Source of the DNA: Escherichia coli
Lineage (GTDB): Bacteria; Pseudomonadota; Gammaproteobacteria; Enterobacterales; Enterobacteriaceae
Assembly: GCF_024298765.1 (NCBI RefSeq)
Contig: NZ_CP101210.1
Strand: one strand, 5' to 3'
Length of the DNA stretch: 64,000 nucleotides
Shown here in pieces: positions 33,935 through 34,195 of the stretch (position 1 is the first letter of the stretch; the number at the start of each line of letters is the position of its first letter). Under the pieces are notes generated by a model. It was not told where the DNA came from. It saw only the letters and a program-made list of their open reading frames with translations, and searched no databases. Both the position numbers and the translations under genes were made by a program.

Positions 33935-34195
33935 ATAAGTGATATCAATAAATTCATTATTCATATACCCATCGATATAAATATATTCTGAATTATTATT
34001 AATGTCTGATAATAAACTTGATTTTTTGCTGTTTTAATAATATTTAAATAATTAATTTATATTAAAATGCGACCAATTAATATTATTTTTAGATAAAATC
34101 ATCTCTTTGATGTACTATGCCTTTGAATCAAAAAGGTACCTATTAATATAGGTGATGATTCATGGTAAAGGATATATTATATCAATGGAGTTTTT

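Follow-up and report, generated by a model that had tools for sequence, protein, structure and literature searches.

The region between glmS and the long polar fimbria pilin gene lpfA on Escherichia coli contig NZ_CP101210.1 contains, at positions 33936-34195 of the 64,000-nt stretch of DNA analysed here (the window), a tract that we judge to be the promoter and regulatory region of an lpfO113-type fimbrial operon: its weak sigma-70 promoter would be silenced by H-NS, and an anti-silencing input would come from outside the fimbrial island. We put the probability of this reading at about 0.6. Silencing by H-NS is plausible by analogy with better-known loci, and the AT-richness and bending pointed out in a preliminary description of the sequence are correct and stronger than stated there. 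The tract is a member of a well-known class, the ordinary promoter region of a fimbrial island that is common in E. coli; that the AT-rich, bent promoter of a foreign fimbrial operon is silenced by H-NS would be a textbook principle and no surprise to a specialist.

Composition and predicted bend of the tract

With a GC content of 20.8% (79.2% AT), against 50.0% for the window, the tract is fully as extreme as had been described: it has the lowest GC of 63,741 sliding 260-bp segments, the next independent minimum being 29.6%. The two A/T-rich strings quoted in the preliminary description, AATAATATTTAAATAATTAATTTATATTAAAATG (34036-34069) and TTAATATTATTTTTAGATAAAATC (34077-34100), are found exactly there, and its coordinates are correct. 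When the GC-rich terminator is included, the whole intergenic region still has only 25.7% GC, the lowest of the 30 intergenic regions of at least 60 bp. The frequency of TpA steps in the tract is 3.3 times the window mean of 0.048. The elements concerned are as follows:

33889-34195: glmS-lpfA intergenic region, 307 bp
33936-34195, plus strand: AT-rich tract, the lpfA regulatory and promoter region, 20.8% GC, TpA 0.158
34050-34112: predicted intrinsic bend, 63 bp, centre at 34081, 115 bp upstream of the lpfA ATG

The label "curved-DNA-like" was borne out by two calculations. In a wedge model with Bolshoy/Trifonov parameters, under which a phased A-tract control gave 118 degrees and random sequence 38, the bend at 34081 is the strongest predicted in the 64 kb, at 78 degrees over 63 bp; the 99th percentile for the window is 52.5 degrees, and 1% of composition-matched shuffles reach the same value. 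A spectrum of AAA/TTT runs, which needs no curvature parameters, shows them to be phased with a 10.5-bp period; P is 0.013 for the tract as a whole and 0.001 for 34000-34140. Four alleles were aligned, namely that of the window and those of AST262, O104:H4, and E2863, and the predicted bend recurs in the other three at -107 to -115 from the ATG, with 57-63 degrees. In its composition and shape, the tract groups with DNA that H-NS binds. A 28-nt direct repeat (34056-34083 and 34122-34149; copies 75% identical, 66 bp apart) is also present; both copies end in ATTAATAT, and a similar 11-mer, CTATTAATATA, occurs in the regulatory region of the O157 lpf1 operon.

Terminator, promoter candidates, and leader

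The tract had been described as running from the glmS terminator to the pilin start, in agreement with a hairpin at 33904-33933 and the lpfA ATG at 34196. The hairpin folds at -23.6 and -22.8 kcal/mol on the two strands (z -4.9 and -4.4, with 0 of 200 shuffles equally stable), and it looks bidirectional because both strands fold about equally well. A consensus terminator scan did not report this hairpin, which folding shows clearly, and Rfam yielded only sub-threshold, terminator-like matches. The hairpin is nearly invariant in the four alleles and is unlike the K-12 glmS terminator. With glmS closed off by this strong terminator 262 bp ahead of the ATG, lpf needs a promoter of its own within those 262 bp.

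Promoter prediction, a check that had been proposed with the preliminary description, found promoter-like hexamer pairs to be over-represented in the region (7, versus 2.4 +/- 1.4 in shuffles), all of them weak. The best conserved candidate has a -10 hexamer, TAATAT (34144-34149), that is invariant across the alleles; from its position, transcription would start near 34156, which gives a leader about 40 nt long. A competing candidate, TAGATA-17-TACTAT, with its -10 at 34113-34118, is broken in allele E2863.

Variation between the alleles is patchy. Intergenic identity is 85-90%, and 58 of the 308 intergenic columns vary, but only two of the 38 columns in a distal block at 33975-34012 do so, and the block is a candidate protein-binding site. 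A second run, 34152-34237, is invariant over 86 nt (P=0.003 in the four alleles) and comprises 44 nt ahead of lpfA plus 42 nt, or the first 14 codons, of the gene itself; if the -10 is at 34144-34149, the invariant block would therefore be the 5' leader. The elements, from left to right, are:

33904-33933: island-borne intrinsic glmS terminator, A6, GGGCUGCC-GACC-GGCGGCCC, U5, from folding
33975-34012, plus strand: distal conserved block, ATATAAATATATTCTGAATTAT.A.TAATGTCTGATAA, from the allele alignment
34123-34149, plus strand: best conserved sigma-70 promoter candidate (predicted, weak), TTGAAT, 15-nt spacer, TAATAT
34152-34195, plus strand: invariant leader, with Shine-Dalgarno GGAG at 34187-34190
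34162-34206, plus strand: 14-codon upstream open reading frame (ORF) MVKDILYQWSFYEA, with AGGTGA ahead as a good Shine-Dalgarno sequence, overlapping the lpfA start by 11 nt

There is a slim chance, judging from the sequence, that 34152-34237 is a post-transcriptional control module that would act on top of any H-NS silencing, and two mechanisms may be considered. The upstream ORF, whose end lies 11 nt into lpfA, could have a coupling or a blocking effect on lpfA translation. Alternatively, the motif GGA occurs twice in the leader, at 34170 and at 34187, with a distance of 17 nt and with one copy inside the Shine-Dalgarno sequence, and this candidate pair is arranged like a CsrA-binding pair. 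Either mechanism, if true, could explain a roughly 10-fold expression difference between strains with near-identical operons (see below). The predicted leader RNA structure does not differ from that of shuffles (z 0.5 for 34150-34230 and -1.9 for 34100-34230). A scan of species representatives with a 20-mer from the leader gave as its sole match one 1-kb metagenome-assembled genome (MAG) contig, and because that contig is mis-binned, no cross-species footprint was obtained. The contig, JAIJJM010000969.1 (1038 bp, assigned to a MAG of "Collinsella sp."), shares 93.7% identity with 33791-34834, from the end of glmS to the lpfA-lpfB junction, and is almost certainly mis-binned E. coli DNA.

Silencing by H-NS and its alternatives

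Transcription of glmS meets the strong island-borne hairpin, and under the silencing model that of lpf would start, within the proximal part of the tract, at a weak sigma-70 promoter, for which the -10 at 34144-34149 is the best candidate. H-NS, probably together with StpA and Hha, would nucleate on the AT-rich bent DNA and spread over the promoter, so that the operon would be kept silent under most conditions. Since no regulator is encoded on the island itself, expression would need an anti-silencing input from elsewhere in the genome, or else a physical signal.

Several lines of evidence are consistent with this model. The tract had been described as of a kind typical of H-NS-silenced fimbrial promoters; its composition, TpA richness, and predicted bend are indeed usual for DNA bound by H-NS, and they match the region upstream of O157 lpf1. 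The tract had further been called horizontally acquired, and it is indeed borne by a variably present, compositionally distinct island. The glmS-pstS junction occurs in three alternative states among 5426 complete E. coli genomes: the intergenic type studied here (1937 genomes), an O157 lpf2-type junction (355), and an empty, K-12-type junction (3068). Island genes have a GC content of 40-49%, versus 52-53% in the flanks. The variable presence and distinct composition of the island fit foreign DNA of the kind that H-NS targets. The statement that no regulator gene is encoded there also holds, in that RefSeq annotation and Pfam recognise only a pilin, a chaperone, an usher, and a second (tip or minor) fimbrial subunit in the island. 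The operon (there named lpfB1) was about 10-fold more expressed in STEC strains (E. coli that produce Shiga toxin) associated with hemolytic uremic syndrome (HUS) than in non-HUS STEC strains (PMC6033998), and such a difference despite 99-100% sequence identity points to control in trans. In enteroaggregative E. coli (EAEC) 042, expression of the lpfC that lies beside pstS falls in a mutant lacking Aar, an H-NS-binding protein (PMC5570504), which is related but indirect support for the involvement of H-NS. At the level of individual sites, TCAATAAATT at 33945-33954 (plus strand) matches 9 of 10 positions of the high-affinity H-NS consensus TCGATAAATT, and TCGATATAAA at 33972-33981 matches 8 of 10 positions of a variant consensus, TCGATATATT; in all, one 9/10 match and several 8/10 matches lie in the tract.

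A number of points weigh against H-NS silencing of a weak promoter. The consensus-like decamers show at most a marginal excess over shuffles, and the best of them sit in a part of the tract that varies between alleles. More generally, allelic divergence is about that of lpfA third codon positions (89% identity), so most of the tract is without tight sequence constraint. No strong sigma-70 promoter was found in the tract, where several weak candidates compete. The literature searched contained no H-NS binding, start-site, or hns-mutant data for this region.

The near invariance of 33975-34012 and of a second block, 34075-34097, amid varying neighbouring sequence could instead reflect a sequence-specific regulator (Lrp, IHF, or an unknown factor) acting on these blocks, the AT-richness being incidental. 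The first block contains, at 33976-33990 on the minus strand, a match to the Lrp consensus with two mismatches, and IHF-like matches with one mismatch number 7 in the region, versus 1.45 in shuffles. Consensus matches in DNA that is 79% AT are weak evidence, however: Lrp-like matches at three or fewer mismatches are no commoner than in shuffles, and the IHF-like sites are not kept in the other alleles. A specific regulator of this sort, which we regard as unlikely, would moreover be compatible with H-NS. Searches with consensus sites for CRP, PhoB, OmpR, ArcA, FNR, NagC, and Fis returned nothing that was both above shuffles and conserved. Upstream curved DNA can also activate promoters, and the bent DNA might mainly do this, by making UP-element-like contacts or by wrapping itself around RNA polymerase, instead of silencing; phased A-tracts are present, and about 75 bp separate the centre of the bend from the predicted start downstream. 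That geometry rests on a start site that is itself predicted, and regions of comparable composition upstream of lpf1 and bgl are silenced, not activated. We consider a mainly activating role doubtful, at long odds, although activation and silencing can coexist.

An iron-responsive, Fur-controlled promoter might be expected from the chromosomal site, which is that of O157 lpf2, an operon reported (PMC4288034) to respond to iron, Fur, and bile salts; in addition, TGATAATAAA at 34007-34016 is also part of a palindrome in the corresponding region of the O157:H7 strain Sakai. The two regulatory regions cannot be aligned, however, their shared 16-mer being reached by 12% of shuffles, and the 19-bp Fur consensus is matched at best with seven mismatches, a level that coding DNA in other parts of the window reaches as well. 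No Fur box was found in the region with 19-mer, 7-1-7, or hexamer models, and Fur control is very unlikely. A phase-variation switch, either an invertible element like fimS or a Pap-like Dam/Lrp methylation switch, would be in keeping with the strong variation in expression between near-identical strains (PMC6033998), and the 196 bp immediately ahead of the pilin gene are bracketed by an inverted repeat whose arms, at 33969-33980 and at 34177-34188, match in 11 of 12 positions. Yet this inverted repeat exists in the present allele only, its left arm not being kept in the major alleles, the island has no recombinase gene, and a query with the segment inverted gave a one-piece match covering at least 80% in 0 of the 5426 genomes. 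The methylation switch is excluded because there is no GATC in 33889-34195. A switch of either kind is thus extremely improbable, and silencing by H-NS stands as the reading that we prefer.

The island and its relation to known systems

The operon is a four-gene long polar fimbria cluster of the lpfO113 type, sited between glmS and pstS. Its layout was taken from the RefSeq annotation of NZ_CP029164 (chromosome of strain 104, an E. coli isolated from chicken), which is 100% identical to the region, with Pfam support for the fimbrial genes:

30527-31897: glmU
32059-33888, plus strand: glmS coding sequence
34196-34768, plus strand: lpfA (lpfA-O113), pilin (RefSeq, Pfam)
34816-35547, plus strand: lpfB (lpfB-O113), PapD-type chaperone (RefSeq, Pfam)
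35572-38094, plus strand: lpfC (lpfC-O113), usher (RefSeq, Pfam)
38105-39175, plus strand: lpfD-like gene, fimbrial subunit, tip or minor (RefSeq, Pfam)
39176-39422, plus strand: right-hand intergenic region, 35% GC
39423-40463: pstS

The last 57 nt of glmS are the same as in K-12, the first differing base directly follows the stop codon, and identity with K-12 returns near 39318, just upstream of the pstS Pho boxes, which marks the right edge. The island is therefore about 5.4 kb long and takes the place of the K-12 glmS-pstS spacer, and the AT-rich tract is its left end. In 33889-33935, the Tn7 attachment point, some 25 bp beyond the stop codon of glmS, would be located within the terminator that the island supplies; the 3' coding sequence of glmS, to which TnsD responds, is identical to K-12 over the 57 nt just mentioned. 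Between alleles, lpfA, lpfB, and lpfC are 90-96% identical and the lpfD-like gene with the lpfD-pstS spacer (38105-39422) only 78%, which suggests, from the alignment, a mosaic or fast-evolving tip adhesin. Decay of the island was seen in strain EC19, in which lpfA is replaced by IS1, and in AST262, in which lpfC is truncated by IS1397 with rearrangement; in E2863, lpfD is a pseudogene, and IS91 lies between atpC and glmU.

Elsewhere in the window, a minus-strand rrn operon spans 1-3918, the mioC-mnmG gap, where E. coli oriC is located, lies at 19715-20092, yieL (50275-51445) is annotated as frameshifted, and ISVsa5 (IS10-like, IS4 family; 62157-63365) is inserted between tnaC and mnmE.

Long polar fimbriae of the lpfO113 type are present in about a third of complete E. 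coli genomes, and the carriers include O104:H4, many non-O157 STEC, and avian strains. The literature searched describes regulation for the two O157 operons only, and neither description transfers to this region by homology. Concrete experimental targets are offered by the present map, which comprises the terminator, the centre of the bend, the conserved blocks, the promoter candidate, and the invariant leader.

The preliminary description had held that lpf operons are regulated by H-NS and Ler. This is established for lpf1 of O157:H7 (OI-141, between yhjX and eptB), where H-NS is reported to bind and silence and Ler to relieve the silencing (Torres 2007 and Rojas-Lopez 2011, as cited in PMC4288034 and PMC5357955); the claim does not extend to the lpfO113-type operon at glmS-pstS. 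The operon that in O157 occupies the present site, lpf2, is reported to respond to Fur as well as to iron and bile salts (PMC4288034, PMC5357955, PMC6313751; Arenas-Hernandez 2014 as cited in PMC4288034), and a response to pH has also been described. The preliminary description thus cites the regulation of a different operon and overlooks the unrelated regulatory region of the O157 operon at this site.

The resemblance to lpf1 is one of architecture. In both cases, some 260-290 bp with a GC content near 20% separate the terminator of the preceding gene from a chaperone-usher operon of the Lpf family, and AATGGAGTTTTT closes both regions directly ahead of the lpfA start codon. The yhjX-lpfA1 region of Sakai is 343 bp long with 23.6% GC, and its lowest 260-bp segment has 20.0% GC. 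The loci differ, however (yhjX-eptB versus glmS-pstS), LpfA is 37% identical to LpfA1, and Ler is encoded in the LEE (locus of enterocyte effacement), the site of which lies outside the window, whereas the lpfO113 type was, according to a RefSeq note, first described in LEE-negative strains, that is, strains without Ler. Compared for homology, the two regions have no more in common than an 11-mer and, at the ribosome-binding site, a 12-mer.

O157 lpf2 (OI-154, glmS-lpfA2) shares with the present operon its chromosomal site, the type of glmS terminator, a similar ribosome-binding site, and an LpfA that is 55% identical, but its regulatory region is 699 bp in Sakai, versus 307 bp here. Homology between the two was likewise rejected: only the terminator and the ribosome-binding site align, and the best internal segment is reached by 12% of shuffles.

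The region upstream of bgl, a textbook H-NS-silenced operon, lies within the window (phoU-bglG, 44004-44288), where it is the second most AT-rich intergenic region, and it served as an internal benchmark. Like the lpf tract, it is intergenic and AT-rich and has a predicted bend, and it precedes a normally silent operon. It is less extreme, however, at 31% GC, TpA 0.102, and a 59-degree bend, versus 21-26%, 0.158, and 78 degrees for lpf, and it belongs to the conserved genome, whereas the lpf tract belongs to a variable island.
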